From contig CAYJXI010000001.1 of the NCBI GenBank assembly GCA_964374105.1, forward strand, positions 135,743 to 199,742: 64,000 bases of DNA, read 5' to 3'. A program made the translations under genes and the position numbers. The DNA comes from an uncultured Planctomycetales bacterium. GTDB lineage: Bacteria > Omnitrophota > Gorgyraeia > Zapsychrales > JANLHA01. Shown here piece after piece: positions 33,001-63,000 of this stretch. The first letter of the stretch is position 1. Each line of letters opens with the position of its first letter. The notes under the pieces were generated by a model. That model was not told the origin of the DNA. It did not search any database and saw nothing but the letters and a program-made list of their open reading frames with translations.

Positions 33001-36000
33001 CCTTAGTTATTAGGCTTAAAGAGGAAGGTAGGGAATCTTTTAAGGTCAAGGCCTTTGTCATTCCCCAGGAATCTATCCCAGTTATCCGCCAGAAAGGGAT
33101 TCAGAGTTTAATCATGGCGACGTTTGCGGATGTCAATCACGGCCTGCTTTTAGGTTTATTTATTCCTGAGGAATACGTTAAATGGCTTCGTGGTGAAACG
33201 CCAGCTGTTCCGTTAGTCGTTTATGCCTATTCCAAGAAGCATAACTCCTCGCGGATCGCTGAACCGTTTATCTTGGATCTGCAGAAGATGATAAAGGGAG
33301 AGACGATTGAGCTAAGGCCTCAGGGAAGTCCTTGGTGGTACGGAAAGACAATTATGAATGTCTATCCTGATTCCCATAATCAGGCCATATTGCGCGGTCA
33401 TTTGAAATTTAGACTAGACGCCTTTGATCTTTTAGTCAATATGTCTGTCAAATTAGACCAGGAGTTTATTAAGAAATACGGCAGGGCCGACAAGTTTGAG
33501 GTCTACGCCGTTATCCAAAGGGATCCCAATCATGGTTTTGTGGTTACGGTTTATCACAAAGATGATTTTAATCCTGACAATCTTGAAAGTTCAAGGGATC
33601 CGTTGATGACCTATGCTTTGTTGGGAAGCAAATGGCGGCCGGTGGATTTGGCGGTGTTGGATATTATTGCCTTTAGTGAGGGGAGAAAAGACCTGGCGGC
33701 GACCGGCCGGAAAGTAAGGAGGAAAGCCTTTATCCTGAAAAATACTAAGTCAAGATTTTTAGGGAAAGGGATCGTGACGGTCAAGGCCGTTACGGATCAA
33801 AGATCCTTGGCCAAGACGGTGACCTTTGGTTTTACACCTGAGGAAGTCAGGCGCCATGATCTTGAGAATAATCCATTGATCTTTGAGTTAAAGGTTGATT
33901 CCGACTTTGGTTCCTACCTGAATATTTCTGTTGAAAGAAACGGTCAAGAAGAGTGGATGGCGACTTATTACTGGATCGCTGAGGCTAAACAGCAGCACCG
34001 GATGCGTGTTGATTTTAACCGGCTGGCCTTGATTGACCATGTTTCGGGGAAGCCCAATATTCACGGGCAGCCGGTTAAGCCGAGAGTCTACAGCCATGAC
34101 CTGCCTGTTCCTAACGGCGGATGGATTGTGCTGGGCGTCGGCCCCGAACGGCGGCTGAACGTTTATGGATTAGAACTGCTTAAAGGCAAGGTTCCGATAT
34201 TTATTCCTGAACCTCATGCGGAATACGGCTGGGTGTTCAACGTGCATGATGTTGAGGCCTACCTTAAGGATCGAAATCGCAAACCTGATGTTGTCTTGAT
34301 TAAGGACCGTAAGCGCCGGGACCCGAATGGATATGCCTTGGTTTTGAGGGAAGGATCCGGTATTGACTTGATTGACCCTCAGCGGGAGATTCCGATTACC
34401 AAGCGGGGATTAATAAAGCATTTTCATGATAAAGATGTTCGTGATCATTTCTTTGCCTTTAAAGAAATGATTGAGCAAAAGGCCGAGGGCAAAGATCTGG
34501 TTGTGATTGAAGGGATTCAGTTCTTGCAAAAACAGTATGTGGCAAGGGGGGCAAGGTATACGCAGTGGGTCTTTGCCCGAGGGGATATTGAGGCGGTGGC
34601 GCGGTTGACGGGCTGGCGGCTGAAGAGACAATCCGGCGGCAAAATCAAGGAGGACGAACAGGCGGAAGGCATGGCAAAAACTATCGGGCAGGCGAGTGTT
34701 GTGTACCAGATTTCCGGCAACCAACTCATCAAGGTGGGGGAGATGAACGCAGGGTTTGGGCCGGAAGAGGCAGCGAGTTATTCCGATGTTATTGTGAAGA
34801 ATGTCCGAACGGAGGTAACCGGTGCTCTTATCCACGGCGGCGTGATTTGGTGGGGGGCGATTGCAGATTTAAAAGACCGGCGTGATTTAACGGTTGAGTA
34901 CCGTGGCGGTCAACCCTTTCGCGCTTGGGCTGGCGATCGCTATCCCACCAACCGCCTGGATCAGCCGGATGAGGACATTGCCGCCATCATCATCCTTCCC
35001 GAATTGACACAGAGAGAGGTCATTTTATGGGATAGAAATCAATTACCCTTGGGATCCGGGCGCATGACGGAACGCGTGATTAAGTTTGAAGAAAGCCGCG
35101 GGGTCGAGCAGATCAATGTCAGATTCCACGATCGCGAAGTAGGGGTTAAGGTTCTGGTGATCCCTTATGAGTATGCGGTAAGAATTCGTGCACAGCGTAT
35201 CGAAAAGGCCGTTGTGGCTACCTTTGTTGATGAGTATTTAGGATTCTTTGTAGGAGTTTTTGTCCCCAATGATTATGAGAAATGGCTGAAAGGGGACGGC
35301 ACAGCCGCGCCTTTAAGTGTCTATGCGGTTGCGGGAAGACATCAGAGAGCAAGGATAGCTGATCCTTTTGTCATGGATATCCATAGACTGAGTACCGGTC
35401 GAGTGATTAAGGTGAGGCCTTCCGGCAGTCCTTGGCGGTACGGAAGATTTGCCTTGCGGCTGCAAAAAGATCATTCCGGAAAGAGCCAGTTATTTCTAGG
35501 ATCTATAAGACTTAGGTCATTGGCCTTTGATATTAATGTACGGATGTCATTTTCCATTAGCCCCGAAGAGGCCAAGAGACTTGGCATCAAAAATAAGGAT
35601 CAACTGTATGCGGTTATACAGGAGGACCCGAATCATGGTCCTATCGCCCAGATATATCGTTTAGAAGATTTTAATCCGAGCCAGCCGGAGAGTTCCCAAA
35701 ATCCGTTAAAAACGTATACCTTCTTTGGGGACAAGTGGATGGCCGTGGATTTAGCTGTGCTTGATATCCTGGCTTACGGCGAGGGAAGAAAGGACCTGAA
35801 AGCTTTAGGCCGGCAGGCCAGAAGAAATGTTGTCATCAAAAAGTCCGGGGATGAACGGACCGGTAGAGGGATAACGACCGTAGGGTTCTTCTTTTCAAAG
35901 CGAAAAGGTCAGAATGATGTTTTAGGTAATCGTGTGACCTTCGTATTCTCTCCGGCGGAGGTGAAACGGTTTAATTTAGAGAATAACCCGGTGATTTTAG

Positions 36001-39000
36001 AAGTGAAGGTCGATGATGATTTTGGCCCCTTTGTCGAGATCTCTGTGGAGAAGGATGGCAAGAGAAAAGTCATAGGAACGAATTATTGGATTGCCGAGGC
36101 CGTCAGGCAGCATAACATGCGTGTAAACTTAAACCGTTTGGCTTTAATTGATTTTGTTTTAGGCCGGACCAATATTCAGGGGTTGCCTATTAAACCTAGG
36201 CCGTATAGGCATTTTCGGCCTGTCATAGATGTTGGCCAGATTCAATTAAGGGCAGGGCCGAATCGTGCCATTTATATTTATGGGTTAAGAACATTACGCG
36301 GAAAGAAGCTGATATTTATTCCGAAGACAAGCCAGAAAATTCCCGGAAGGTTTTTTGCGGTCCATGATATCGAAGAATATAAAAAGAACAGGAAGCGTGA
36401 CCCTGACGTGATTCTGGTGAGGGATGCCTTGGCCAAGGCCCTGGTTCTGTTAGAGAGAAGAGAGGTGCAGTTTATTGATCCGCGCGAAGAGGTCATTGTG
36501 TCGAAACGGGGATTGGAGCCTTATTTTAATGCGAAGGCCGTCAAGGAAAGCGAGGTCTTATTAAGAAAGATTATTGCACAGGCGAAGGGAGAGGGTGAGG
36601 TTGTTATCGAAGGCATTCATTTTTATCAGAAAAGGAGACAACACCGCAGCAAGAAGGCGGTTATGGTCAAGTGGGTGTTCAAAAGGGCTGATATTCTCCG
36701 GGTGGCGGACATGATGGGCTGGGAGGTTAAGGGCAAGGTTATCGGCGCCTTCACACAGGAATTGAATGTTGATCGAAATATCGTGTATATCATTTTTGAA
36801 AATCAATTAATCAAACAAGAAGGTTCGTTTGCAGAGTTTGGTGCCCAGGAACTCCAAGGATATCCGAATGCGGTGGTGAAGAGCGTCTATACCGACACCC
36901 GCGGTGTGCTCATCCATGGGGGTGTTGTCTGGTGGGGCGCGAGACCAGATTTAAAGAACCGCCGCCATATTACCCTAGAATACCGGGAAGGGAAGCCGTA
37001 TCGGGCGTGGAACGGCGACCGTTATCCTACGGACCGGCTGGATCAGCCGGATGATCGTATTAAGTCGATTATCATCGAGCCCGAATTGACACCCCAGGAA
37101 ATTATCCTGTGGGATCAGGGGAAGATTGATTTGACGCCGGGCCGGATGATGGAGAAGGAGATTTCCTGGGTCAAATTTAAAGGAGAGGAAAAGGTCCAGC
37201 TGAGACTCCATGGCGGCAGCCTCGGAGAAAGGAATTTGATTGTTCCCGATGAACATCTGGCGAGGATGAGGCACGAGAAGATTGAGAGGATAGTTATCGC
37301 CACTTTTGCCGATGAGAATCTGGGATTGCTTTTAGGTCTTTTTGCTCCGGAAGATTATCGTCAATGGCTTAAAGGGGATCTGACGGTTGTGCCGCTCAGT
37401 GTCTATGCGTATTCTCAAAAGCGCAAATCTGCCCGGCTGGCTGAACCGTTTATTATGGATCTTTATCAGTTAAGTCAAGGGAAGCCCATTAAGGTTCGGC
37501 CGGACGGTAGTCCTTGGAAATATCGGAAGACCAAGGTCCATATTGTTATAAGCGATAGCCCCAAGAATCCCATGACTGTTTACTTAGATATGACGTTACG
37601 GAATTTTGATATCAAATCCATACGTTTGAGTATACCTCCCGAGAATATAAAGAAATTGAATGTTCATCGGGGAGACGAACTTATCGTGGCCATCATTGAG
37701 GACTTAAACCACGGTCCAGTGGCTTTAATTTACCGCGGCCAGGATTTTGATCCCGAGCATCCCGCATCATCAGCCAATCTGCTGTCGACTTATACCTTTG
37801 TTTATGGTAAATGGCGGACGGTTGATTTAGCGGTTCTGGATATTGTCGCCTTTACCGAAGGTCGGAAGGATCTTGTGGCTGCCGACCGACGGTTAATCAA
37901 AAAGGTTTTTATTTTTAAGGAAGGCAAAGGGGCTGTCCAGATCTATCTTTATGACAATAACAAGCGGATAAAAGATATCGTCTTTTCGTTTACGGCAGAA
38001 GATGTAAATCAATTTAATTTGAGGAACCAACCGGGTATTACTGAATTAAAGATAGATACGGATTACGGGCCTTACATTGAATTTTCTGTTGAGGAGGATG
38101 GGAAAACCATTGTGATTGGCACCAACATCTTCTTTGAAGAAGGCGAGAGGAGAATCGTCCGCATGGATTTAGACAAGCTGCGATTCATTGATTATATTTT
38201 AGGAAAAACAAATATTCATGGGCTTCCCATAAATCCGACGCTTTATCGTCATCCTTATGTTGTGCCTAAGGCAGGCGCAGTGAGTTTGCGCGAACGGGAG
38301 CAGACGGTCGTCATCCGCGACTTAAATTCGCTTATCGGCCGTCAAGTTATCTTTATCCCCGAGGTCCATCCTAAATACGGCTGGGTATTTAAGGTTCATG
38401 ACAGCCAGCAATACATCAAGAACCGTCTGCGTCACCCAGAGGCCATTTTAGTAAAAGCCCTTGAAGGAAATGCCTTGATCTCTCTTCAGAAACTGGAGGC
38501 TGATATCATCCATCCGGAAAGGGATGTGATAATCTCGCAGAAAGGATTGTCGGCTTATTACAGTAAAGCCGATACAGAAAATTTTGCAGCTCTCATCAAG
38601 AAGATCGAAGAAGCGGCGCAAGGAAAGACAGAAGTCACCCTAGAGGGTATCCCCTTTGTCAAGAAGCGATATGAGCATTATAAAGGACAAGGGTGGACTT
38701 TTGGCAAAGACGATATCTTCAATGTCGCTAAACTAATGGGCTGGAAGGTCAAGAAAGATATTATCCAAAAATCTTTAGAGGAAGAACTGCATAAGCTCTT
38801 TGAGGAGCAGGACCTTCTATTTTTGGCCAGTCGGTATTCCTTGGATATCAAGGACATCCTCTGGAAGCTGATCGGTTATCAGCTTAAGGGCCAATATGAT
38901 GAAAAGCAGATAGAATCTATTCTCAATCAGACGATTATTTCTATTATTAACCGTTATATCGAAACCAACGGCATTGATGAGGCCCTTAAGCACGCCCGGG

Positions 39001-42000: not shown

Positions 42001-45000
42001 ATCAAGATATAGAGACGCAAGCAGGACAATCGGTGCCAGCCACCACCAATCATCTTTATCAAAAACTGGTTACGGCTATTAGCCGGATCTCGAAACTGGC
42101 CCATCGTTATCAGACATTAAATGCTATTGAACCGAGGTCCCTGCGAAAGAAAGAGGTTATCAATCAGAAGATTGAAAAGAAATTCGGTTTATTAAGACAG
42201 CAGATTTTAGAAGGGCTAAATATTCTGAAAGATGATGAAAGAAGGGATTTGTTAATTCGATTGGCTGCCTTAAAAGAACGCGACAGGGTTAGACAATGGT
42301 TTGAGGATTATCAGCCGCTTGTCGACTTGATGGATGTTGTTTCAGCCAGTACGACAGAGGAAAACGGTAAGGCATTGAGTGAGACAGAAGACGATAATAC
42401 CCGACCGGACGCTGATCCCAGCCCCTTCACTGGCATCCAGACACCTGGTCTTTTAGTGCGCTGGAAGGCTGAGTTTAAAGATATTCTTAAAAAGGGCGAT
42501 GAGAAGATTATCGAATATTTAAAAGAGCGCTCCTATGACGAGGAAGTCATGCGGCGTGTTTCGAGGCAGCCTGTGACACCGACCGAATTTGTGAAATGGC
42601 ACGCCCGTGTTTATGATGTCGCCAAAGGGAAATGGCGAAGACCGACTGTGGGGGATTTGTCTTATCTTTTCAGTCTGGCTAAGGAAACAGATCAGGCTTA
42701 TGAACATGGTAGGAACGAATTTTTTGAAACATATCTTTTTTCACCGATTATCGACATTGATCGAGAAAAGGTGTTGATGCAAGCCAACGAGGCCGGAATC
42801 CGGGCTGCTGCCCAAGTGCACTTTGATTACAACCAGCGTATCTTTAAATCCGGCCAAGGTATCCTGGCCATGAACCAAGATGGTTCATGGCTGGCGATGG
42901 CGGGGAAGAAAAAAGATAAAAAATATCGTAAGCAAAGACAACAAGATTTTCCTCACACATCTTCTTCAAAGGACCAATCCTTAGCTAATATTCAAAGCCA
43001 GTCACAGTCTCAACAATTTTCCACTTATCGACTGAGTGGAGGAGCAATCCTTTTAACCCGACTACTTCCAGAACAAATTCAAACTTTGGATAAGTATCCA
43101 GCCGTTGTCTATGAGGATAAGACAGGTCGTTTAAGAGTGAGACAACCCGTAAGAAGATACTTCATAGATGGAACTCCTTTAAGCAAGATTAATGAAATAC
43201 TAAGCACGCGTCTTGTAGAAACAATTACGGCCCTTGCTCAAAGATTCTCAAAACGAGTGGTTGTGGTTCTTGATTGGGGTGTGGGCAATGGAGTCGCATT
43301 ATCTCAGATAGCTGAGCAGCTTTTTCAGAATCTGACTAACGTACGATTAATAGGATATGCAAATCAGTATCTACCGGAGTGGCAATCTTATGATGAGCGA
43401 GTCACATTCGTTTTAGATGTCCTGGAAAAATTACCGATTTATTTCAATCCGGGAGAAATTGATATTATTTACAGTTCTTTTGGATTAGAGCAATTAAGAC
43501 CAAAGGCGCTTTCTGATCACCTTGTACAGTTAGCTCCACTCTTACATCCGGAAGGTGAGATTCGGATGACTAATCCTGGTCAACGTACCAGACGATATTT
43601 GGAACAACTACAAATTTACTTTACTATCGAGGGTGGTGAAAATGATTTAAAACAGCCACGCATTTCACCACTTGCACTCGTTTGGGCCCACGCGGTTCGC
43701 TTCACACTTAAGCAAAAACAACAAGAAGGTGACGGGCACTTGAAAGAGGGACAGGAAATGCAAGATAATACTCCGCCTGCCATGCAACCAAAGTGGCTCA
43801 TTAGGTTTAAATTTAACCGTGCCTTAAAACGCGCCGAGATTTCTCGGTTCCTTCAAGAAGCCGCATACAAAGAAGAAGCCAAGCGGACGGTCGGTTTTGA
43901 ACGTGCTCCACCGGAGAAATTCGTCAAAGCCCACAAACATGTCTACGATGTAAGAACAAGCAAATGGCGCAAACCCACCCAAGATGAAAAAGCACAACTT
44001 CTTGAACTGGCCCATCAAACAGACCAAACCTATCGAGAGGCCTTTGAAAAGGTTCTTCATGAAGCAAAACAAATGATCTTAACCGCGAGCACATTTAACC
44101 TTGGTTTCGAGATGTTCGCTAAGACCAGAGAAGTTGCGCGTGAAATCGGCATCGCCGCGGCGGCGAAGGTCCACTTTGACTACAACAACACTGTATTTAT
44201 GGCCCAGGAAGGCATCCTGGCCATGAACCAAGATGGTTCATGGCTGGCGATGGCGGAAGACCAACCTAAATACATAGAAGGTCAATTTTCTTTAGATCAA
44301 TGGAGTAGAGTGATGATTAACGGCAAAGAAAAAGACAGAGCGAGGGGATTGCGAAAGATGCGTTTGATTAATCTCCAAGATATAAGTCAGGAGGACTTCC
44401 TTTCCATTATCGCGGGATTAGTATCAACTATCACATCAAGGGCTGGCAAATCGAGAAACCGTATTGTTGCCGTTCGGTGGCTGAATAAGGTAATGGATAA
44501 TCTCGATTTCGCAAAATTTTCCTCTGAATTGAGAAAAAACATTGAAGGCTGGATCAATCTTTTGGGGGATGAACTGGAGCGTTATGGGCCGGTATCTTAT
44601 TATGTCCGAGGCGAGCTTGTTATTATTTTTGAGAAATACGGCACGATTTTAAGTGAAGAGTCTCAAGCGGTTTTATTCCACGTCATTTATCAGGCGATGT
44701 TAAAAGAACCACATCACCGAATACAGGAAAGAGAACTTTCAACGTTAATAACCTTGGTCCGCGGAACACCAAGGATTGGATTTCGATTTATGAACTCGGA
44801 TTTTGAGATATGGGTAGAAATGACAAGATCCGAGCTAATCGCGATATTATTCGGTCTAAATATTTTAGGCGAGGATAATCATTTCAGGCTTTTTGCGGCC
44901 TGGCTTTTGAGTTTTAGACAGGGCGATGATATTGCTCAAAAAGTAGCACTGTCAACTTTACCGTTGGCAAAAGAGGCTTTAAGTGACACAGATGAAAGAG

Positions 45001-48000
45001 GTCGATGGATAGCAAAAGAATTATTAAAAACTTATGAGGAGATGAAAGACATAGATTCGATTTCCCATATTCCACCCGCCCTGCAGCCGCACTGGCGGCA
45101 GGAATTCGATAAGCATCTAAAAATCGGGAATATTTTACAAATAATTGACTTGGCGGCTAATGTAGAAGAATGGAATCGCTCGCAGAATTTAACCCGCGGC
45201 CCGCCAAAAGAGTTTGTCCGGCCGCATGAGATGGTTTATTACGCAGACCGTGGCGTCTGGAACAAACTGACCTTCGGCGCCATCAGAGCGCTATTTAGAT
45301 TAGCCTATCAAACCGACAAAGCCTATTGGCAAGCCCGCAACGAATTCCTCAGTTACGCTAAAATTATTCTGAATCGTTCTACCGAAGATAAATTCGATCA
45401 AGAATCTGACCACCTCATTCTCGAAATCGCACATCGTCTCGGCGTTGAGGCCGCGATCGTTGTTCATCGGAATTATAATTTAGAGGTTCTGATAAAAAGT
45501 CAAGGCATCCTGGCCACCACGGCTTCGGAAGACGAAGCCAAGCGCGGTGGCTCCGGCAGCTCTGGTTCACATCGTGAACCAGCGGGAGCGATGGCGCAGA
45601 AGGATAAGAAGCGAACTCGGGATAAACGCTTTTCAGATGATACGCGAATCATCCAGTGGCGTCAGCGTCTAACTGAATCTGAAATTCTTGCTGTTAGTCA
45701 TCGATACAGTTCCTTTGAAAATAAAGGTAAAGGAGATGGACTCACGCCTGAGGGTGTTAACTATGTTAAGTTAGATCCAGAAGGAAGCTCCTTATTTCAT
45801 CTTGACTATTACTTGGAACGCATCAAAGCTAGATTTGGTGAAAAACTTGCTGCCAACAGAGAATCCTCGCTGGAAGTCTTGATGCTGGGGCCTGGGTATT
45901 TCTGGCAGGCAATTGTGGCGATGATCAAGGTGTTCCCACAAATTAGAGTTATCCATTTAGTGGAGCGTGATGCCAAAGCGCTAGAAGCTCTTGATCGCAA
46001 ATTGTCTGAGTATTCGGCTGTTGAAACCATGCCGGATCTTTTAGCTTATCAGATCAATCTGCTTGAATTGCCAGCGAAACTTACCAACCGTATCCATTTG
46101 GTGTTTGATGCAGAGCTTTTTGATCCAAATCATTTTTCACCAGGACATATCTTGCAGGCGCAAAAAGAATTAGTGAGGGTGCTAAAGCCAGGAGGGCTTC
46201 AGATCAGCTGGGACGTGCAACGCATGCCCGCTTATCATGACACGTTGCCTGTCGAATCAATGTTTGATTTGATGGCCAACCTTCATTTACGGCAACCAGA
46301 AATGGAAAAAGGTGACAGTCATCTTGGGGATGAGGATAAAAGAGACCATCCCCCCGCCATGCAGCCGCGCTGGGCGACGGAATTTGATACGACACTGAAA
46401 GAAGGCCGAGGATTAGCATTCGTTGAGGAAGTGGCTTACCGTGAAGAGATGGAAAGAACGACCCAGTGGATACGCGCCCCACCGAAAGATTTTATAAATA
46501 ACCACAAGGTCAAAGGTGTAGTGAGAGTCTACGATACCGCCCTTCACTATTGGCGAGGTGCCACCCGCTGGGACATTGGCCAGCTTCATATGTTGGCCTA
46601 TCTGACCGATGCCGAATATTATCTGGCCTTTTTGGAGGCGTTAAAGTCTAGAGAGAATGTTGAGTCCGCCCGCCGGGCCGGGATCAAGGTGGCCGCAGAA
46701 AGACATGCGCAATTCAATAGGGATGCCTTCTTAGCCAAGAAAGGCATCTTGGCGATGGCCGATTCATTTAAGCGAAGCTCGCTTAAGAGGCGCAAGGCGA
46801 TGGCCAATAACGGGCGCTTATCCAAAACTCATCAACTTCAGATTGATAGTGCAAAGTATCGAGATGATCTGGATTCCCTGCAAGCGAAGGTTGACTTATC
46901 TCTATCTCAAGGTCAAGAGGTTATGCTAAAAGTGGGCACGAAACGTTACCTTCTCCTTAAGTCTATAGGAAAGGCAATCTACACTGTGCAAAGAAGGAAT
47001 CCCAATGGGACCTTGGAGCGAAAATCGGTGCTGAGGCTTATCACTTCTTATCACGATGGCTTTGATATGGATCATCTGACTTATTATTATCAACGGATAC
47101 AGCCTAAAATCAAAAAAGATCCTCATCTTATCAATCCGTTTGTGGAAATCCTGTATCTCAATAAGAGATTGAAGATTTATGAGATGGAATGGGTGGAAGG
47201 GCAGCCGGCTTCTTTCCTTGATGACAGGATTCAACAATTGAATATTATCCTTCGATTGATGAAAACATTGGCTTACATTCATAAGCAGTATAAGGTCTTT
47301 ATGGGTGATGTGAATATGGCGGGGAATGTCTTTGTGACACCTTCAGGAACCATTAAACTGATCGATTTTGGAGAAATGCGTTTGTATCTTGGACGAAAGC
47401 AGAACATAGAAAGAATACATACCGCTAAGAAATTTTATGAGATTTTAAGCATCGCTGAAGATATTTATAAATTAATTTTTGGAAGATCTCCGAGAATTGA
47501 TCAGCATTTGATAACAGTGCTGTTTAACGAAGGCGAGATAGAGCCACGTCATTACCTATATCTTAGTTATGATGAGATCGAAAAAAAGACATTGAGCAAA
47601 GGAGAAAAACTGATCTTGAATGCTCTTCGTAAGGCGATCTTTGCCCAAGGGACATATTATAAATCCATGGAGGCATTTTATGATGATCTGGTTAATACCT
47701 TGGGTAACAGGGATCAAGAAAAATATGGGAGTCACGATCGGCAACACCCTCCTGCCATGCAATCCTTATGGCGTAAGGGATTTGAAGAGGCGGTGAAATA
47801 TCAAGAGGTGCAGGAATTCTTAGAAGAGGTGGCTTATCATGAGAAAGCCAATCGATCTGAAACCTTTGAACGGGCACCCCCCAGAGAATTTGTCGCTGGT
47901 CATCTTAAGGAAGTTTATGATGTGGCTTTACGCATTTGGCGCAAACCTACCCTTTCCGAATTGAAGACTCTTTATCGGCTGGCGAGGGAAACCGATAAAG

Positions 48001-51000
48001 CCTATGAAAGAACCTATCAAAGACATTACAATGAATTCCTTTCTTTAGTGCATTTCTTTAGGCCGTTGCTTAATGTGTTAGGGGTTGAAAAACGTACTCG
48101 TGAGCAAGCGATGAACATAGCCCGAGCCTTTGGTATCAGGGCGGCAACCAAGGTGCATGCGGCTTACAACGCCAAAGTCTTCGCAGCCAAGCAAGGCTTT
48201 TTGGCGATGGCTTACCAGAATGAAGAAGACAAAGTAATAAGGTTCACAAATATCTCAGAGGAGAATCTCACCCAAGGAAACGAAAATTCAAAAGCGACCT
48301 ACGCTGTCACCCTCAAGCAGATTGATGCTCACACCTGGATCGCCCAAAGCAGAAAAGGAATTTATCGATATCAACTAACGCCAATGTCATTGTCCGATTT
48401 AATACGATTGAAAAAACAAATCATCGAGTCTGCGAAGAATGGTGAAAGCATATCAGATCTCGCCAGCTATATCGATTCGCTCATAAACTTCAATTGGAAA
48501 AAGACCAGTGTGATTGTAGGGTTGTTCCTCAATGATCGGATCGTTGGTTTCTATGAATTTGATAAAGCCACCAATTACCTAGGCTTTATTATTGTTCATC
48601 ATCGATTTAGAGGGACAGGCGCTGTGGATATCCTTCTTGAAGACTTGGAAAGGAGAATATTTAACGGAGATAAAAAAGTAAAGTTGAATGCCTCCATTAT
48701 TCGTTTCTCTTTAAGAGCCGATGAGACCTTCGAAAGCGGCACGATCATGGAATTTAAGAAAGCGTTAGGGGTCTTGAGTGAGGTCACCCTATCCGTAAAA
48801 GATGAAAGTCAGCTTCCAGTGGGACAGCCGACAGCGATGTTACCTCGCTTCCGGAAACGATTAAAGCAAGCGATTGAAGGAGGGACACTCAAGGAATTCT
48901 TAAAAGAGGTGGCTTATTGGGAAGAGTCCAAGCGGAGAAATTATCCGGCCTCAGTGAGTCCGATTGAGTTTGTGCGCTGGCATAAACGAATTTTTGATGT
49001 TTCCACTGGCAAATGGCGAAAGCCAGATGAAAGCGACAAATTCCATCTTTTGAAATTAGCGCTTCAGGCGGATAGAGCCTATGAAAGGGCCATGATCAAG
49101 TTCTATGAAAAATACAAGGGGAATATCGACAAATCTCTTTGGGAAAGACCACTGTGGAGAATTTCTGCAGAGAAGATGAAGACCACTTTATTGATCTTGG
49201 CCGGAATGGCCCATGAGGAAGGACTTAAAGCCGCCAGTAGAGTCCATACTCAATATAATCTTCGTATTATGAAATCAAGAATAGGCATCCTGGCGATGGC
49301 GAATGGAGAGGATAAGAAGAAAAACTCTAAACCTTCGTTTGGCTTTTCTTATCCTGTGACATTGATCCAGATGGATTCTGTCACTTGGATGGTGGAAAGT
49401 AAAAAAGGTCGATATCTATTGAAGGTCTTAGGTTCAATTCATGATGGTATAGTTACCGTCCGTTTGATTTACAAAGGCGAATATGTCGGTTACTACGAAA
49501 TTAATTCTCACGATTTTTTTATAAAACATGTTCGTGTTGATGAACAATTCCAAGGGACAGGAGCATTTGATGTTCTTCTGGAGGATATGTTGATCAGAGT
49601 CTTACACGATGATCCCATAAGAGAGGTCCAAGCGATTATCATGCGGGACTCAGAAAGAACGGACCGGACCTTTAGGCGGGGAACATTGGCCGAATTTAAA
49701 CGAGCTTTAGGGGTTCTCAGTAAAGTCAAGGTTAAAAGGAAAGGTGACAACCACCTTAAAATGATGATGAAGAAATATAGGCTCAAATTGAAGACATCCG
49801 TTGCTCAAGAACATAAAGTGAATGATCCCGAACTTCCTGGCCTGCTTCCTATCTGGAAAGGGGAATTTGAACAACACAAAAAACAAGGACGAATTTTGGA
49901 ATTCTTGGCGATGGCGGTCTATTATGAAGAAAGCAAACGATCGATCAATCAAACCCGGGCGCCGTCCAAAGAGTTTGTGAAGGCGCATCGGCGTGTTTAT
50001 GATGTCACAAAAGGCAAATGGCGGAGGCCAAACTTCAGTGACAAAAAATCCCTCTTTAAACTCGCTAAATTAACCGACCAAGCTTATTGGCTAGCCTATG
50101 ATCAATTTTTAAAACGTGCTAAGACTTTTATTGATATTGCCAGTGATTTTGGAAATATTGCAGAAGTTGAAAAAGAAGCCAAAAATTTTGCCCATCGGCA
50201 AGGGGTTGAGGCGGCAACAAAGGTGCATCTTGAATACAATCTTAATATTTTAACATCGGGTGTAGGAATCTTTGCTCTGGAAGACGAACAACATTTGATT
50301 CATGGTTCCCAATGGGATGGATTCAAAGGAGTCATTTTTGATCTCGATGGTGTCATTGTTGACACAGGACATCTTCACAGACGTGCCTGGGAATTAACTT
50401 TGGATAGGCCCGTGGATGAGGTGATGGCCAAACGATATTTCCGCGGCAAGAGTGCTTTGGAGGCGGTAAGGGCCCTGATTGAGGCAGACCTGTTAACCGG
50501 GCTCGATGAATCTTCCATCCGGTATCTCAGCCATAAAAAAGTATCGATCTTTAATGATCTTTTCAGGACAGAAGGTGTTCAACCCTATGCGGGTAGCGTG
50601 AAATTCATTAATGAATTAAGACATGAGAATATTGTTCTGGGGGTTGGTTCTTCCAGTCCTATTGCCGAGGAAATCTTAAAGAGCATTGGATTAAGAGATT
50701 ATTTTAAGGCGGTTGTGGGAGGACGCGGCATCACCCAAGGCAAACCCCATCCGATGATCTTTCATCTGACAGCGGAAAAGATGGGATTGAATCCCGAAGA
50801 TATCGTGGTCGTGGGGGACTCTGTCCCGGATGTGCAGGCCGCGGTTCAAGGAGGATTTGGATTTACCATTGGGATCATTCGCGATGGGGAAGACAATAAT
50901 TATCAAGCGCTCCTTGAGGCCGGGAGTGATTTGGTTGTCAATGACTTAAAAGATATCAGTGTTGATCAAGTCAACAGACTCTTTATTGATAAGAGAAAGA

Positions 51001-54000
51001 GGATTGACATTATTAAAAATCAGAAAGAAGAAGATGACAGCCGTCTTGAAGTCTCAACGATAACTCTATTATTCAGGGATGTTGAGCAAATATTGAATTC
51101 GGGTCTGGATTACGAAGCCAGATTGCAGACCTTACGGCAGTACCATGACCGGCTTTTGGCTCAATCCATCCTGGATGTAAAGCAAAATCTGGATGCGCCG
51201 GTCGAAAAATTTGAGCATGAGATCCTGATGGCCGTTATCCGGCTGGCAGAAGAAAAAATCGGAAGATTCCCTGGCCGTTACGCCGTAACGATTGTGGGCA
51301 CCAAGACCACCCCATTTGCTGATTTAGATGTTTTGATTTTTGCCAACAGAAACAGACCCAAATATTTTAAGAAATTCATAGCGGAGATCCGAGCATCCGC
51401 AGAAAAGGTGGGATTGGTTATTGACCCTGTTCCGTTTAGGGTCATTCCAATAAGAAGGTTGAAGAAATATTACCAATACTTTGATGAGCGGGCTTTGTTT
51501 GTCGATATGGTTATCCGCTGGAATGTGGATTTTGTGGCACTCACACATCTTATGTCCATGCAGTTTATCGGTGGAGCAGAAAAATTCTACCAACGGGTTC
51601 AAAGAAAGGTGAGATCAAAGATTTACCGGTTAAGGCCTAAGAAAATCCATTTGATTGCCGAAGAGCATCTTACCCCGATATTCGGATACGAGGATAACAA
51701 GCGTTTCCACATCAAAGATGCCATGCACAATATCCACGACATTATCTTTTTCTATCGCCTGGTTTATGGCCATCGTGAACACAGGCTTAGGGAAGCCCAT
51801 AATGGCATGGACACACTAGAAGTGCTTAAAGACTTAAGTTTGATCTTGTTGGAGGAATACCAAATCCTGAAAGAGTTTTATGCATTGTTGATCCATCTGT
51901 TTAGGATTATTCAATTGAAGCACCAAAAAATTGTCGATGTCCTTGAGCCAACGGATTTTGCTCTGGTTGCGGCAGGTCTGGGATTAAGCGAATCTCAATT
52001 GAAGGATCAATTGGTTTTTTATAGTCTGGCCTTGGAGAAGAGCCGTAAATTCATTCAAGAAAATGTTTCCTTCTTGATTTCTGGTGAGCAAAGCAAAAAA
52101 GGTGGCAGTCACATTGACAAAGAACATAAGGAAGATGAAAAGAAACAAGGTTACTTTGGTAATCTTACCTTAAAGGATATTGATGCAATCGAAAAGGCTG
52201 TTGAATACCGTTTGTTTAAGATCATTCCACAATTCTTAGGGAAGCCGAAGTCCCAGGACACAAAGTTCTATGTTTTCGAGATCCCCGCTCAATATTTTTT
52301 AGAAAATTATCCCAAAAAACTCTTTATCTGGGCCCGCCTGCCAATGAGAGCAAAGGGCGGGCAGGCCAGGAGAAATCAAAGGGATGAGTTAGAGATCTTC
52401 TTCTCCTGCTCTCAATTCCTAAAACAGTTTGAAGAGAAGGTGGCCGGTCAATTAGCATTAGCCCTTGAGGCTGTTGCCTTGCATGAAACTTTAGAGCTCA
52501 GTTACCGAGAATTCTATCAATGGGATGATGCGCATCGAATGGCAGTTGGGTTTATGAAACAACAAAGTAGATTTGTGAAGATGATGGGACTCTTAGAAGA
52601 ATTATTTGCCGAGGTCACCGAACCCAAAGAATCTTTAGCCATGGGAACACATGAGGCTCAGGAATCCCGCGATCTAAGCCAACTCACCCTTAAACAACAA
52701 AGAGGTAGAAAATCAAAGATTGAAATAAGATTAGAAGACAAGGAAATGCTTGAGAAGATCAAGGGTAAAAATATGACCGAGGCCGCTTGGATCTTGGATG
52801 TCTCAGTGGCGGGCTTAAGGCTCTATTTAAAGAGAAATCCAGGGAAAGAGCAGGAACTAGGACTCCATAAGCAACGCGGAAAGAAGCCCAGACACCAGCC
52901 AGCCCCCATCGTTATTCAGAAAAAAGAATTGAGGGTAGAAGAATTATATCCTCTTATTTCCTCCTCACTGAAGTTCAATATTAATAAAGAAGAATATTCT
53001 AGGGCATTGAGATTGGTTGAGGAAATTCTTCTTCTGCCGGTTGAGAAGATTATGGTGGTTGAAGACGGACTCGAGTATCTAGCGGTCATGTTGACCTTAC
53101 TGGGCAAAGACGTTACCTATGTAGCCGAAACAAAGGTGGAAGCAGAGAATATGGTGATGTATATGCAGATCTTCCAAGACCGGGCGTTAGAAAAGGGATG
53201 GGATTTAAGTCTTAAATTTACGGCGATTGGGGGTGTCCAGCAAACCCCGTATGGTTTGGATATGTCTCCCGATGTCAATGATCTGGACATCGAAGCGGAA
53301 TTGGAGAGCTTCTTAGATATTAAGAGAACTCTGACCTTAGATTTACAGAAAGTCAATTTAGGCCTGGGGACGTTTGATTTTATCACCTTTGTAGATTTCA
53401 TGAGCCAGGGTATCCGACGTCCTTACAAGACTTGGCTTAAAGGTGCTAAGAGACATTTAAAAGAAGAGGGCTTTATCCTCATTGACGAATATAAACCCGG
53501 CCGGGATCAACAAGCCATGATTGATGATTTTAAAGTCATCTTCCCCCACCGCCAATTACTCACGAAGGAATCTTTCTTAGGGAGGGATGAGAAATCCAAA
53601 GCAAACCGATTTTACCGCATCACCCAGAATTCGCAAGGAAGATCACCGAAAGGCCAAGGTTATTTCGGCAATTTGCATAAAGACCATATCAGCGAAATCA
53701 AAGCCATCGTTAAGGCTGGAAAGAAAATCAATGTCATTCCAAAATTCAATAGACTCTTGCGCGCCATCGAAGGCGTGCCGGTTTTGTTCTTTGTCTTAAC
53801 CGAAAACATTGCCCGTGCGCCACCGGAAGGCTTTATTTGGGCACGGTATCATTTGGGTGTTATCCAAATATTTTTCTCTTTTGATTTAGTCGGACGATTC
53901 CATGATCGACTCCAAAACAATCTCAGCCAGGCTTTAGAGATTGTGGCCGTCCACGAATATCAGGAGATTATCCTCAAAAAATCCCATGAAGAGACAGACA

Positions 54001-57000
54001 GGGAAACCGTAAAGGTCTATGGTCAGCGGTTCCCGCAGATTTTAGAGACCTTGGCGGGATTATTGAATAGCGATATTGGTCATTATGTGGCTATGCAAGA
54101 ATTAGGCTCATGGATTATCCTTGAGGAAAAGACAGGGAGAATCCGCTTGCGATCTGAAAGTCCAGCCATGAAATTATCGTTTACTCTTTGGGCGGTCCGC
54201 CATGGCCAGACAAAAGGGAACATCAAAGGGATATTCCAAGGCGCGGTGGATAAAGAAGTCAATCAGCTCGATAAGACAGGACACAAGCAGGCTCAGACAG
54301 CTGCCCGGAAGTTGTTCAAAGAGCTTAAAGATGAGATTCATTCCGGCCGAGAGATTGTTGTGGTGACCAGTCAGTTTGCCCGGGCCAGAGATACCGCAGC
54401 CGCGTTTATTAATCTTGTTAAAGAAAAAGCAGGACTGATCATTCATCCCATTTTAGACAAAGGGGCCAATGAGATATCCTTTGGGATTTGGGACAACAAA
54501 ACCGAAGAGCAATTGCGCCGCGAACAAGAAAGGATATCTCGTTATCGCAAAGGACTGGATGCCGCAATCCGGCCGCAGGGCGGGGAGAGTTTTCTGGATG
54601 TTGTCAGGCGCGCACGATATTGGCTTCTTGAATTAAACAATCGTTATCGCGGCAAGACCGTTATCGTTTTTAGCCACGGAACGCTTCTAAGCGCGGTGCG
54701 GGTTTTGTTAGGCGACACGTCCCTCCATGATGAGAGCGGCCAGATTGACTGGCGTAACAAAATGATCCCGCATGCCGAACCGGTATTGCTGGCAAAACCC
54801 CGGGTGTTAACTAACACAGATATCGAATTAGGCTACTCTCATCAAGATCCTGCTAAAAGCAACCGTCCCTTAACGAATAAGGAAATTTCAAGGATCAAGG
54901 GAATTTTAGATCAACACAAAAAGATAATTCAAGAGGCCCCTATCAGCCATGATGCTGAAAAACAAAAGCTGATTCGTTTAATACGAAAGAAGTTTGAAAA
55001 AGAATCAGACATCTTAAATCGAGCTAAAGTGATCGAGGCTCCTTCAGAAGTCGCTGAGGCTATCGATGAGCTTAAGAATACAAGTCCGGATCTTACCCTC
55101 TCTGCCCTAAATACGGAATGGGAAGGTCAAGACTATATCATTCTCTTTGAAGAAACAACAAACCAGCGAGAACTTCTGTGGCGTGCAGTTCTGCATGAGG
55201 CAAAGGCTATTCAACTAAAAGGGACAGCCACCTCCAAGCAGATCCATACCCGCTCCGAGATTTTTGAAAATGATTTCTTCAATTTCCAGAGAAGAAGAAA
55301 GATGATCCTTTGGGGTATACCTACGACATTGGCCATTTTGGGCGGTGGGTTTATGTTAGGTGAGTTCTTGAAGCTTAGCCCAATGGAAGAGGATACCTTG
55401 GAAATTTTCTATGGCCGGCACAGCACTAAAGAAGATTTTGAAAAATATAAGAAATATCTTGCTCGACAAATCAAAAGAGCCAAGCTCGCAGGAAAGAAGA
55501 TGATCTTCCTTCATGAATACAATGGCCTGGAGGCGCATTTCAATCATCCGTGGGTGAGAAGAATCTACAACTTATACCTCACCAATCTTCAAGAGGCGCA
55601 GAAAGAACTGGACTCAGAAAGAGAGCAATCCGAAGCCGCGGCCAACCGGTATATCCGCGGGATATCAAAAGGATTGATGGTGGGTGGTCTCGCAGAAGGA
55701 TTTTTAAGAGACACAATTGAATTCCTCAAAGAACATCAGATTGAGATTGTCTATGAAAAGCTGAAAGTCGAAGATTGGGTTTTAAGTGTCCAAGCGAGCG
55801 TTGAATTGCAAAACGCCACCGACCATTTTCTAGCAGGAAACATCAATAGCTACTTAGAGAGTATGCGAAACAAATGGTTGTTCAATCAAAGAAGCACCGA
55901 AGGCCGAGACCAGAAATTAAGGCAGCAGATTAATGACTTTATGGCCCCCGGGAATGTTTATCTTATCAGCCATCGCGGGACATACCATGTGGGAATGGAG
56001 AAAGTCTTGACCCAAGCCAATTATAAAGTCAAAGCTCATCATGAGCCTTTAGCCGAATTGTTAACGAAACAGCATGGCTGGTCTATCATCACACTCAAAG
56101 AAAGACTCGGGGTTGTGGTTACTGAGCAAGAACGCCGTCTTAGGCTCTATCAGGAGATGGTTGGACAACTGCTGCATAATTATTTCATCAATAAGAAGAT
56201 AACTCAAGATGACCGCGAAAAAATGGTGAATGCCATTTTGAGTTCTGAGAAAGTTACCGAAGAGATGGTGATGGAGTTGTCTCAATATTTAGCTGTCTTG
56301 GGGAATCAAAGTTATTCCTTCCTTACCCAGAGGGCTTATCAATGGCTTGAAAAGGAGGGTTTGATTCCCGAATCAGTTAAAGCGAGGCTTAAAGACAACA
56401 CCAGAAGCAGCCGGCTGCTGACGGATAAAGAGAATGAATACATTCAAAAGGTAATGATGGAACACAAAGAGCAAATCGCTCTGGCGGCCCGAGAGGCTAT
56501 CGGGGATGATCCCTTTAAAGATAAGAAAGAACTTATCATTAAGATTCTTAAGGACAATCAATACCAGGATCTGGCTGAGCGTTTAAGGAATGCAGTTGTC
56601 ATCACGGCACCTCTTCATGGGATCAAAGATCACATTTTAAGAGGATTGATCCAAGATATTTCCCTCCTTGAAGGAGTAGCCAGAACAAAAGACGAACCGT
56701 TAATTGTCTATGCCCTGAATAGCCAAGTTGCCATTGAAGAAAAAGATTTTGATGTGATCATTCTTCTTTCTGTCAGCCAAATCAATGAATTGGAAATCAT
56801 CAAATCTCTTGTTCATGAAACAGTGGCTATGTCTAAGGTAGGAGAGGATTACACAAAGGTGCACGCAGCTGCATTGGAATTAGAAAATTGGATTGAAGAA
56901 CAATTAACAAATCTTTCTGCCTCTAAGTCTAAGAAAGGGAAGAAAAATCCTAAGGAAGATAAGACCAAACGAAGAAGGAAAGGAAAGAAAAGTATCAACG

Positions 57001-60000: not shown

Positions 60001-63000
60001 TGTTTAATGCCATGCATGCCAGAAGCGGATTCACTAGTCCCGATGAATTGGATGTGCAATCAAATATTCCTGGCCTGAAATTTATCTTGAAGGCTATCCA
60101 GCAAGGGATTGATGATCCCGCCATCGAGGAATCATTCAGGCCCAAAATCATCCTGAGCCTTAAGTTGGCCTTGGTGTATTATCTTAAGAACTATGCCTCG
60201 TGGCTCGCCCAGACATATCTTGAAATTAAGGAGTATGAGCATGGGGTGTCCTCTGAGCTTAGGATGTCAGATTCGTTAAGGGAACTAAAGGAGTGGATAT
60301 TTAAAAACAAAGAACACATCCTTGCGATTGTGAAAGAAATCAAAGAACTGGAAAAGACAATCGGCTTTTCCTTGGCCTTTGCCGGCTGGGGATGGTTCGG
60401 CTCTTATTATTTTGAGGGACTTGATAAACTCCTTATTTTTGAGGATACAGAGGGACATCCGGTTAGCTTTGCTGAGGTTCTGTTAAATCCCTATGAGAAA
60501 AGACACAGGCTTTGGCTTATTAAATTCTTCTATCCCCAAGTGCAGGGGTTGATTGAGGCATTGCAAAACAAAAAGATCAAGATTCCTGATGATTTACTGA
60601 GATTTATTTTAGCGGATGAGTGGAATCGTAATTATCTTGATGCCATTCAAAAGAAAGATCCCAAGAGATACGAGAAATACATGCAGTCCTTCCATCAAGA
60701 TGAACTGAAAGGTTTACTTCTTAAATTACACGCAAAAGATTTGGATTTAGCCGACCAAATTCCGGATCTCTATCGACTCTTCCTGATGATAGGATTTCCT
60801 TTCCGGATGTTTCTCTTACAGGATTCTCAAGAGTTTTTCGAAGTCTTGATCAAGCGCATTGAAGACATTGAGGAAATAGAATCATTGGCAGAAAAGCCAA
60901 TCTTTAAGATCAAGGACACAGAAAAAGTGCGGGTTTCCGAAGAGTTTGCTAAAGAAGTCTTAATCGCAACCGAAGTTTTGGATTATCCCCAAGCTCGAAT
61001 TTATCCTTATGCGGAGGTGATTTTCGAGGATTACAGGGATGTGAACATTATTATTTACAGTGAACCTAAGGATTATCTTCGTGTCCTTCAATTTATGAAA
61101 GAAGCCTCCACCCACAGGGGTGTTAATGTCTTGTTGATTGAGAAAGGAAGTCTTAAGGAATTCGAGCATCGCGGCAAAAAGTATTTGGCAATCAAATCCG
61201 CAGTAACCTTTAAGTATGGGATTCCCATCTTTGTCAAATTCAAATACTTTACCCAATTGCACGCCATGATTGACCTGACCGATGAATTTGCTTCGAAATT
61301 CCAAGACATAGGTATCCCCATCTTCACGGATCTTGAGACCAAAATTAAGGAGATGATCAAAAAAGCCAAAAGATATAAACATCCCAAACAGGATGAAGAG
61401 TCAGAGGAAGAAAAGAGTGACCCGGCCAGAAGCGATCGGCCGCTTAATGATGAGAAAAGAAGAGATTTAAGAGAACTCCTTAAACAACACCAGCAGGAAA
61501 TCCGTTCCTATTTTAAAAACGAGATTGCGCAAGAGGAAAAACACATCGTTGCCTCAATATTGGAAGAGAAAGGGCATCGTCATTTAGCGGATATTCTCAA
61601 AGGGGCACTTGTCATTAACGCCCCCCCCGGATTACTTAAGGATATCATGGCCTTTGAAAAGAAATATCAAATTAAGATTTATGCCTTGAATACATTCCTT
61701 GATAAACAACATATCATTATTCTTTTTGATATCAGCTTGGAAAATCAAATCGAACCTGCCAAATCCCTGACCCATGAAGCTGTTTCGATCTATTTAAGTC
61801 AGAAGAAAAATATCAAGCCGGAGGAAATTCATACAGAAGCTGAGCACATGGCTTATGAGGTATCCTTAGAGATTCGGTACGTCTTACAGGGACCTCTCTT
61901 GGATGTTGTGGCCCAGGAACTGAAGACCATTAATGAGCAATTATTGAGTCTTTCCAAGGAGGCCCCACCTGAATTGAGACTTAAAAATCCGTTGCATGTG
62001 CTTTCTCCGGGGCTTGGGTTTGGCAAGGTCTTGACGTTTGATCGAAAGACGATTCTTAGCTTCCTTAAGGATTATCTCCATAAAAAGTTTATTAGAACGG
62101 TTGCTTTTGCTAAAAAATTGAGATGGTTGGGTGGATTGATTTTGGTCAGTATTCGCCTATTGTTGATGATTCAAATACTTTTATCATCCAAGAAACGATG
62201 GGAGGTCTTTAAGAACTATGTCAATAATTCGGTGGTTGTTGCTTATGCACTCAATATTTATGAGGTCAATGCATTGATTGATTATGGGGCCAGGTCCTTT
62301 ATCACCCAGCGTGGAAATACGTTAAGCTTTTCCGCCATCTCTGCAGAACGGCGGGATATCCCTTGGGTTATCATGGAACCCGAGGATATTGATACGTTGA
62401 AGGCCGATCAAATCCTCGTGGTTGATAGTCGATTAGGAAAAGTGGTTTCTTTTGAGGAATATGATCTTGAGGCTTCCATTGTTAAACGTTTGAATGAGGC
62501 CACCTCTTTAATCAAAATGGCCGAAACTCCCGAGGAGATTGTTATTATCCGCAATTGGCTGAAATTTGAACTTGCCAAGATTAAAGATATGGCAAAGATG
62601 CGGCAGTTAATTATCCCAGAGACTACCGTTCGGTTGGGAGAAATTTATTTGCGTTCAGAAGCAAAATTAGAATTATTCCGGCGAGAGATCAGCCAACAAC
62701 TTCAGGAAATGATTGAGCGTGTCCGTCAAAGCCATGATGAATATTTGGGGGATGCCTTAAGACTCTTACGCAGAGCCCGCCGTTTGGGAATTGTCAATAG
62801 AGAATTGGAGATGGAAATCGAGAAGATTATCCGGGAAAAAGAGGAGATCCATCGTAGCCAATTTGCCAAACGATATGTTATACCTTTTGATTATAGCGTT
62901 ATGCCGGATTTAGCCAAATGGGTAGGCCAAAGGGCTATCCGTCAGGCCGAATTACAAAAGATCTCATTAAAATATGGGTTTAAGATCGCCAGTGGATTTG

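Follow-up and report, generated by a model that had tools for sequence, protein, structure and literature searches.

The window analysed here is the whole 64,000 nt stretch at positions 135,743–199,742 of contig CAYJXI010000001.1 (assembly GCA_964374105.1). From nt 3 to nt 63998 on the + strand it forms one reading frame without stops, 21,332 codons long and running off both ends of the window, which is read here as an internal piece of a giant multi-enzyme gene. The longest open stretch in the other frames of the window is at most 188 codons, and every Pfam domain of the window, scanned in 1000-aa tiles, falls in the giant frame. About a dozen distinct enzyme Pfams are present, none of which dominates. 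One of the encoded enzymes is a histidine phosphatase with an internal methionine, M18056, whose ATG lies at nt 54168–54170. A first-pass annotation of this DNA had taken this methionine to be the true N-terminus of a once free-standing protein, and hence a footprint of gene fusion. The phosphatase module, its relatives and the status of M18056 are considered here.

The complete histidine phosphatase module occupies nt 54078–54812 (+ strand; aa 18026–18270), as delimited by homology, profile matching, an AlphaFold2 model and Foldseek. It consists of an N-terminal beta extension (nt 54078–54167; aa 18026–18055), recognized from the alignment and the model, followed by a His_Phos_1 core (nt 54186–54716; aa 18062–18238). 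The core matches Pfam His_Phos_1 (PF00300) with 104.6 bits against a cut-off of 21.7 (E 7e-30), over profile positions 1–160 of 194, and profile position 1 corresponds to aa 18062. The full catalytic set is present, namely R18066 and H18067 (in the RHG motif, nt 54198–54206), T18070, N18073, R18127, E18157 and H18225, and the G, T, N, R, E and H columns are invariant across a 17-member family alignment. A T-G-R triplet upstream of the methionine, at aa 18044–18046 (T23, G24 and R25 of the alignment), is also invariant in the 17 members. Translation of nt 54168–54230 in the giant frame gives MKLSFTLWAVRHGQTKGNIKG; the shorter string MKLSFTLWAVRHGQTKGN starts at nt 54168, and its methionine is aa 18056.

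The AlphaFold2 model of aa 18022–18272 is confident (pLDDT 93.6, pTM 0.91) and has the extension packed on the core. The 30 residues upstream of the methionine are modelled as three short strands, with pLDDT >90 for model residues 11–40, and M18056 (model residue 35) is placed in the loop just before core strand beta-1. Foldseek matches the model with a probability of 1.00 to 6s2q, 4qih, 4ij5, 1h2e and 6nru (E 2e-12 to 1e-9; PhoE, GpgP, PspA, CobC and dPGM). The closest solved structures are 200-aa histidine phosphatases (6s2q, Rv2419c, PspA, PhoE and CobC).

None of the NCBIfam equivalog cut-offs is reached by the module. Scores for dPGM, GpmA and GpmB are well below the values required for identity (TIGR01258, 28.6 against 81.7; PRK01295, 50 against 316; GpmB, 34.7 against 261). 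On sequence grounds it is a member of the superfamily only, within branch 1 (PF00300), and not a phosphoglycerate mutase proper. It shares with the branch 1 enzymes PhoE, Rv2419c (glucosyl-3-phosphoglycerate phosphatase), PspA and CobC the RHG motif, two arginines, a glutamate, a second histidine and the alpha/beta fold. It differs from them in the N-terminal extension of about 35 residues with its T-G-R triplet, which is not found in the solved 200-aa enzymes (TMq 0.53–0.60), in its position within a giant chain and in falling below every NCBIfam equivalog cut-off. Most probably the domain is synthesized within the giant polypeptide and would act as a tethered phosphomonoesterase, through a phospho-histidine intermediate on H18067.

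A first word-indexed protein search identified a single close relative, P0001, which is 50% identical to the module and is encoded among ordinary genes on a 4.2-kb contig. The match (blastx/BLASTP) covers window aa 18026–18270 and starts 30 residues upstream of the methionine. The full-length form of P0001 is P0183 (MBU1006968.1), a 305-aa 'histidine phosphatase family protein' of Candidatus Omnitrophota. By eye P0183 has a hydrophobic N-terminal leader, and homology to the window begins just past this leader; in all, some 70 residues of this protein precede its RHG motif. The nearest relatives of the module, MBU1006968.1 and MFH1198787.1, are both annotated as Candidatus Omnitrophota. An exhaustive profile search of 1.84 billion representatives returned 3,959 relatives, including 66 at E≤1e-30 and 265 at E≤1e-10. 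The best matches are mostly internal domains of 1,200–6,200-aa proteins, and they start 17–37 profile positions before the column that holds the methionine. There are also short relatives of about 245–430 aa, which are apparently secreted; at least two of these, P0183 and P0048 (279 aa), seem to be full-length and have hydrophobic leaders. A second word-indexed search, made with the family alignment, yielded short proteins only, since its candidate selection favours short ones. The module belongs to a subfamily marked by an additional N-terminal beta extension of about 35 residues with an invariant T-G-R, so far known mainly from Candidatus Omnitrophota sequences.

The long relatives have essentially nothing but the phosphatase module in common with the window. 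One of them, P0084 (5975 aa; L002, GCA_964387845.1, CAYLXA010000001.1), contains Methyltransf_25, Bac_transf, PPDK_N, His_Phos_1 and PTS-HPr domains, a repertoire that overlaps that of the window. Outside the phosphatase, a single segment of about 180 aa is similar between the two (window aa 9213–9395 and 18997–19141).

Comparison with these relatives bears directly on M18056. The methionine is not the relic of a start codon: the homology, the invariant residues (T-G-R) and the confidently modelled fold all set in some 30 residues before it, at aa 18026. In P0001, the closest standalone relative, it aligns to a valine (codon GTT). Across 174 aligned family domains this is a variable, hydrophobic column, with leucine in 48, valine in 42, proline in 20, isoleucine in 15, phenylalanine in 9 and methionine in 8. 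Methionine accounts for 1.9% of the residues in the giant frame (402 in total), and its occurrence near domain starts is at chance level: a methionine lies no more than 10 residues upstream of the profile-inferred start in two of 13 window domains, where 2.4 are expected. Similarly, 24% of 58 deep-internal phosphatase relatives have a methionine in the 12 residues before RHG, compared with 23% predicted from methionine content. The alignment and the model together lead us to regard M18056, with good confidence, as an ordinary residue at a variable hydrophobic position within a folded module. The claim that it marks a fusion or a true N-terminus is not upheld.

The first-pass annotation had further proposed a search for ribosome-binding sequences 5–12 nt upstream of internal ATGs at domain starts, and had allowed that internal initiation might generate sub-products. 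The anti-Shine–Dalgarno (SD) duplex energy before ATG 54168 is −0.4 kcal/mol, a value equalled or bettered by 76% of the in-frame ATGs. As a class, the in-frame ATGs of the giant frame show no excess of SD-like sequence over codons at large. Near 14 domain starts the best SD-like start has a mean energy of −3.82, against −3.52 at random positions (P = 0.34). No promoter-like site was found on the + strand in nt 52000–56000, and local mRNA folding at the methionine is unexceptional. Thus no ribosome-binding sequence is found at M18056 and there is no enrichment at the 14 domain starts, in what is a test of low power; nor was any internal start signal found that would support sub-products, by tests that do not bear on initiation without an SD sequence.

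A number of candidate signals were considered and set aside. An SD-like GGGAG followed after 7 nt by TTG (aa 18049; nt 54135–54149; −8.2 kcal/mol) was rejected because its GGG AGA encodes the invariant Gly-Arg, P0001 DNA lacks the site, and about 0.7 such matches are expected among the 14 sites tested. The Ala-Met pairs at module ends (GILAM, PPAMQ and VAMQ) were considered as disguised ribosome-binding sequences with an ATG; their SD energies equal background, and the glycine codons are GGC or GGT. The recurrence of AMQ at a module edge is within chance. Likewise, DxAM peptides of relatives do not behave as internal starts, with SD energies of −2.02 against −2.14 for other methionines. In-frame internal starts that yield shorter isoforms are known in bacteria, for example the IF2 forms of infB, clpB and the short form of cheA. 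The window resembles these in that an in-frame ATG falls roughly where a functional domain starts. Theirs, however, is a conserved start codon with a ribosome-binding sequence, whereas the window ATG is unconserved, lacks SD-like sequence and lies inside a conserved fold.

The strings that had been quoted as N-terminus-like are all present in the giant frame: MKLSFTLWAVRHGQTKGNIKG in the phosphatase, KPRILRIIHSLRIGGMEN at aa 1506 (nt 4518), FKGVIFDLDG at aa 16774 (nt 50322) and KRRDFFKASLFAVGALVGLSL at aa 7189–7209. The second of these opens a GT4 glycosyltransferase (nt 4518–5654, + strand; aa 1506–1884; Pfam match aa 1518–1884; Pfam and NCBIfam), which begins 20 residues after a candidate transmembrane helix at nt 4401–4457 (hydropathy scan). 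The third opens a HAD hydrolase of the beta-phosphoglucomutase-like type (nt 50322–50954, + strand; aa 16774–16984; Pfam match aa 16775–16951), with no methionine nearby. Profiles of standalone families do begin at or next to the quoted residues, with TIGR02009 position 1 at aa 16774 and TIGR03088 position 2 at aa 1507, and the CobC, GpmB and PspA profile starts would fall 2–5 residues after M18056. In the His_Phos, HAD and GT-B folds the catalytic or glycine-rich motif comes after the first beta-strand. Any complete embedded copy therefore resembles the start of a protein. The N-terminus-like appearance of the GT4, HAD and phosphatase domains is thus real in so far as whole enzyme folds are embedded; it follows from the folds themselves, the methionine is at chance level, and the resemblance is uninformative on how each copy arrived.

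A fourth supposed N-terminus is a Tat-like motif, RRDFFK followed by a hydrophobic stretch, at nt 21570–21629 (+ strand; aa 7190–7209), which is the twin-arginine to hydrophobic-region part of KRRDFFKASLFAVGALVGLSL. Nowhere else in the window does a basic pair precede 12 or more consecutive hydrophobic or small residues. The motif is indeed present, but it scores 11.4 bits with PF10518 (TAT_signal) against a cut-off of 22.7 (E 0.33), has no NCBIfam match at E≤1 (TIGR01409 included), and is internal at aa 7190 of a continuous open reading frame (ORF). It does not stand as an independent N-terminus, and the likeliest reading is a membrane helix flanked by positive charge.

The broader proposal, that the giant gene is an accretion of once-separate genes, fares better and finds partial support. 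The ORF reads as a string of complete enzyme units, and the phosphatase module occurs in dozens of unrelated long proteins as well as in short ones. Domain accretion or shuffling is thus real, and it is the arguments from methionines and start signals that fall away. A comparison of the phosphatase with standalone and multidomain homologues, which had been named beforehand as a possible refutation of independent fusion, shows it to be no closer to the former than to the latter. Identity to the window module is 49.8% for P0001 and 47.1% for the 279-aa P0048, both of standalone length. It is 48.4% for P0038, 47.6% for P0041 and 46.6% for P0040, which are proteins of 671–1879 aa that begin with a leader and carry the module as their first domain, and 47.3% for P0042 and 46.6% for P0043, in which it is a deep-internal domain. 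Neighbour-joining places the window module among internal domains, with the classes of context intermixed across the tree. The module is thus a promiscuous cassette that has changed more than once, in one direction or the other, between short proteins and multidomain ones.

Some points weigh against the reading of the phosphatase as an ordinary module of an Omnitrophota giant. The neighbour-joining tree is without support values, and identities of 44–50% cannot resolve which relative is closest. Some of the 'short' relatives may be fragments of short contigs. Translation of the whole ORF as a single polypeptide is assumed, and the assignment to Omnitrophota in this analysis is drawn from the relatives of one module and from architecture. 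Lastly, the energies at real gene starts of two related contigs span −9.3 to +2.2 kcal/mol, which gives the SD test low power in this lineage, and for this reason the case rests mainly on comparative and structural evidence.

Another reading is that the giant chain is a polyprotein, cut after translation at seam-bounded modules so that the enzymes are released, or at least recognized; sub-products would then come from proteolysis and not from internal initiation. The phosphatase module corresponds to the mature form of the 305-aa leader protein, in which the match runs from just after the leader. In addition, long relatives contain protein-specific seam peptides at 10–30 times chance, including RSELR, GARL[AS], [AS]SLG, DxAM and ASSP; RSELR occurs 20 times in P0084, against 0.7 expected. 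Peptides recurring above chance are found in P0076, P0130, P0054, P0050, P0053, P0056, P0057 and P0042, and among the relatives with seams are L002 3001–20928 (the contig of P0084) and L003 2001–11045 (ENA ERZ26696514). As the codons vary synonymously, it is the peptide itself that is kept, which indicates selection on the peptide. Mean seam spacing in these relatives is 210–716 residues. Seams lie within 14 residues of the equivalent of aa 18026 in 10 of 16 relatives, and within 14 residues of the equivalent of aa 18270 in 12 of the 16. They thus bracket the module, and its N-terminal edge is placed independently about 30 residues upstream of M18056.

The window itself has just two matches to the tetrapeptide N[ST]DI in its 21,332 aa, against 0.2 expected, and they flank the phosphatase module: N-S-D-I at the upstream edge (within NSDIG; nt 54066–54077, + strand; aa 18022–18025) and N-T-D-I at the downstream edge (within NTDIE; nt 54813–54824, + strand; aa 18271–18274). 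The pair was noticed post hoc and is just four residues long. As a target-site duplication left by a recent DNA event it was rejected, since the synonymous sites differ. The possibility of cleavage by C39/S8 peptidase domains was raised by West-Roberts et al. (2023; 10.1101/2023.11.21.568195). Against processing, the window has no seam peptide at the density seen in the relatives (its commonest 4-mer occurs eight times in 21 kaa), no protease is linked to the seams, and the seams could equally be structural linkers. The terms 'polyprotein', 'cleav' and 'proteol' do not occur in the text of Nielsen & Lui (2026; 10.64898/2026.06.07.730766), and a literature search returned no paper joining 'Omnitrophota' and 'polyprotein'. 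The seams may be cleavage sites, linkers or recombination seams, and a polyprotein is considered unlikely.

An origin by operon read-through is similarly doubtful. Here the domains would be former neighbouring genes of an operon, joined by loss of stop codons with the gene order kept. The order GT4 then Bac_transf is common in polysaccharide gene clusters, and in the window a Bac_transf domain (phosphoglycosyl transferase-like) with its own hydrophobic helix lies directly after the GT4 (nt 5784–6149, + strand; aa 1928–2049; Pfam and hydropathy). Against the databases the GT4 region reaches no more than 41% identity, and its best matches are plain GT4 or double-glycosyltransferase proteins without Bac_transf, which lends no help to a conserved gene pair and, as a test of operon fusion, is uninformative. 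Near the other end of the window (nt 62226–63794, + strand; aa 20742–21264; Pfam), a PEP-utilizers mobile domain, which is a weak match, lies upstream of PPDK_N; PEP synthase and PPDK-type enzymes usually have the opposite order. The relatives, moreover, share just the phosphatase module with the window.

The arrangement of the enzymes also tells against simple joining of genes. Between aa 14,134 and aa 16,762 they alternate with a repeated orphan helical module, designated A, which is about 165 aa long and was defined by self-comparison and a module hidden Markov model (HMM). There are 11 copies in the window, all on the + strand, within nt 28440–32513 and 42402–50288 (for example aa 14134–14294, 14578–14744 and 16598–16762), with 18–39% identity between copies. 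Module A starts with PPAMQPKW and ends with GILAM, and the domains with which it alternates are of the methyltransferase, kinase-like, GNAT and HAD types. Searches against Pfam, PDB sequences and PDB folds gave no match for it. The copy before the HAD domain (nt 49794–50288, + strand; aa 16598–16762) ends about 12 residues ahead of it. Its AlphaFold2 model is helical (pLDDT 81), and the tail up to the start of the HAD domain is disordered, a predicted linker. A second module, B, of about 143 aa, opens with a conserved D-P-T-R-S-S-R-P-L and is often beside candidate transmembrane helices. Self-comparison and a module HMM give six + strand copies (aa 7727–7869, 9031–9174, 18281–18422, 18797–18961, 19257–19411 and 20472–20617), of which the third, starting QDPAKSNRPL, lies directly after the phosphatase (nt 54843–55268). 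A scaffold-with-cargo layout of this kind disfavours plain operon read-through.

That M18056 is the kept start codon of a once free-standing phosphatase fused in frame, perhaps still serving as an internal start for a product of about 215 aa, is very improbable: the proximity of the CobC, GpmB and PspA-type profile starts, the existence of short relatives (at least two apparently full-length) and the patchy use of SD sequences in related contigs, by which a missing SD is not decisive, can be cited for it, but comparison with the relatives has largely refuted it already, since conserved sequence and fold reach 30 residues further upstream, the closest standalone relative has valine at the site and some 70 residues ahead of RHG, the column is variable, and the ATG has neither an appreciable SD duplex nor a promoter-like site.

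The remaining features of the giant frame, all on the + strand and identified with Pfam, are a PALP domain (aa 2200–2491), a peptidase M23 (aa 5807–5909), HEAT repeats, SNF2 plus Helicase_C (aa 13139–13604), two methyltransferases (aa 13787–13861 and 14422–14518), a weak match to ABC1 and a GNAT domain (aa 16166–16231). A Kyte–Doolittle scan gives about 10–15 candidate hydrophobic helices in the window, the N-terminus of the protein being outside it; one of these, at nt 55302–55358 (+ strand; aa 18434–18452), has RRRK just before it. Three tandem units of about 700 aa, with 42–48% mutual identity and no Pfam annotation, occupy nt 32589–38786 (+ strand; aa 10863–12928). A short peptide, (E)KGDSPx(K/M/S)GTVP(ND), recurs five to six times (aa 6098, 6609, 7093, 7712, 8328 and 9012). 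An antisense ORF of 181 aa with a TTG start (nt 6567–7112, − strand) lies within the PALP region; it is the sole complete ORF of at least 150 aa listed and is probably spurious.

Third-position GC content in the giant frame is somewhat over-dispersed (sd 0.054 against a binomial 0.032). Recent acquisition, as judged by compositional discontinuity, was considered and rejected, as there is no outlier among 250-codon windows. There are just two cysteines in 21,332 residues (aa 17469 and aa 19183). The long relatives with the phosphatase module are likewise cysteine-poor, with a median of 0.135%, and several have none in 2,000–5,700 aa; the word 'cysteine' is absent from both papers on giant genes cited above.

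Giant proteins of Omnitrophota have been described, among them a type rich in glycosyltransferases, methyltransferases and peptidases (West-Roberts et al., 2023), and class 1 of Nielsen & Lui (2026) comprises Omnitrophota giant 'multi-enzyme metabolic cluster' proteins. With at least 21,332 codons and about a dozen enzyme Pfams, the window frame is well beyond an ORF of at least 10,000 codons with many different enzyme domains. As in the described proteins, these enzymes are diverse and none dominates; group 1 glycosyltransferase, methyltransferases, GNAT, HAD and peptidase domains are present together with HEAT scaffolding and scattered candidate hydrophobic helices; and Candidatus Omnitrophota proteins are the nearest relatives of the one module tested. 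A difference is that no SecA-DEAD or C39 domain is found within the 64-kb window, the ends of the gene lying outside it. On its domain content, the window very probably belongs to the 'multi-enzyme giant protein' type described for Omnitrophota. Fusion footprints, internal starts and His_Phos modules are not discussed in either paper, and the word 'fusion' occurs in neither. No orthologues of the giant gene were found in protein-pattern scans of genome and metagenome contigs.

Multi-enzyme proteins that arose by fusion ('Rosetta stone' proteins) and megasynthases are exemplified by AROM, fatty acid synthase (FAS), and the polyketide synthases and non-ribosomal peptide synthetases (PKS/NRPS). 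The window resembles these in having several complete enzymes per chain, with domains that also occur separately elsewhere. It differs from them in lacking carrier domains and any evident assembly-line order, in the repeated orphan modules interleaved with its enzymes and in being 10–50 times larger. What the phosphatase region encodes is an ordinary, intact domain; the giant multi-enzyme gene that contains it is of a kind described before, and the sequence itself is new to the databases searched.

If the methionine were a real fusion scar or internal start, giant genes would be readable as frozen operons with sub-products, and their annotation would change. As it is, an N-terminus-like sequence or a methionine at an embedded domain is not usable as evidence of fusion or initiation in giant genes. 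What has been gained is the precise definition of one mobile enzyme module, a T-G-R-extended histidine phosphatase that occurs both in short leader proteins and in giant multi-enzyme proteins. In its relatives, the seam peptides at the module edges offer a testable handle on the assembly or processing of the giants.

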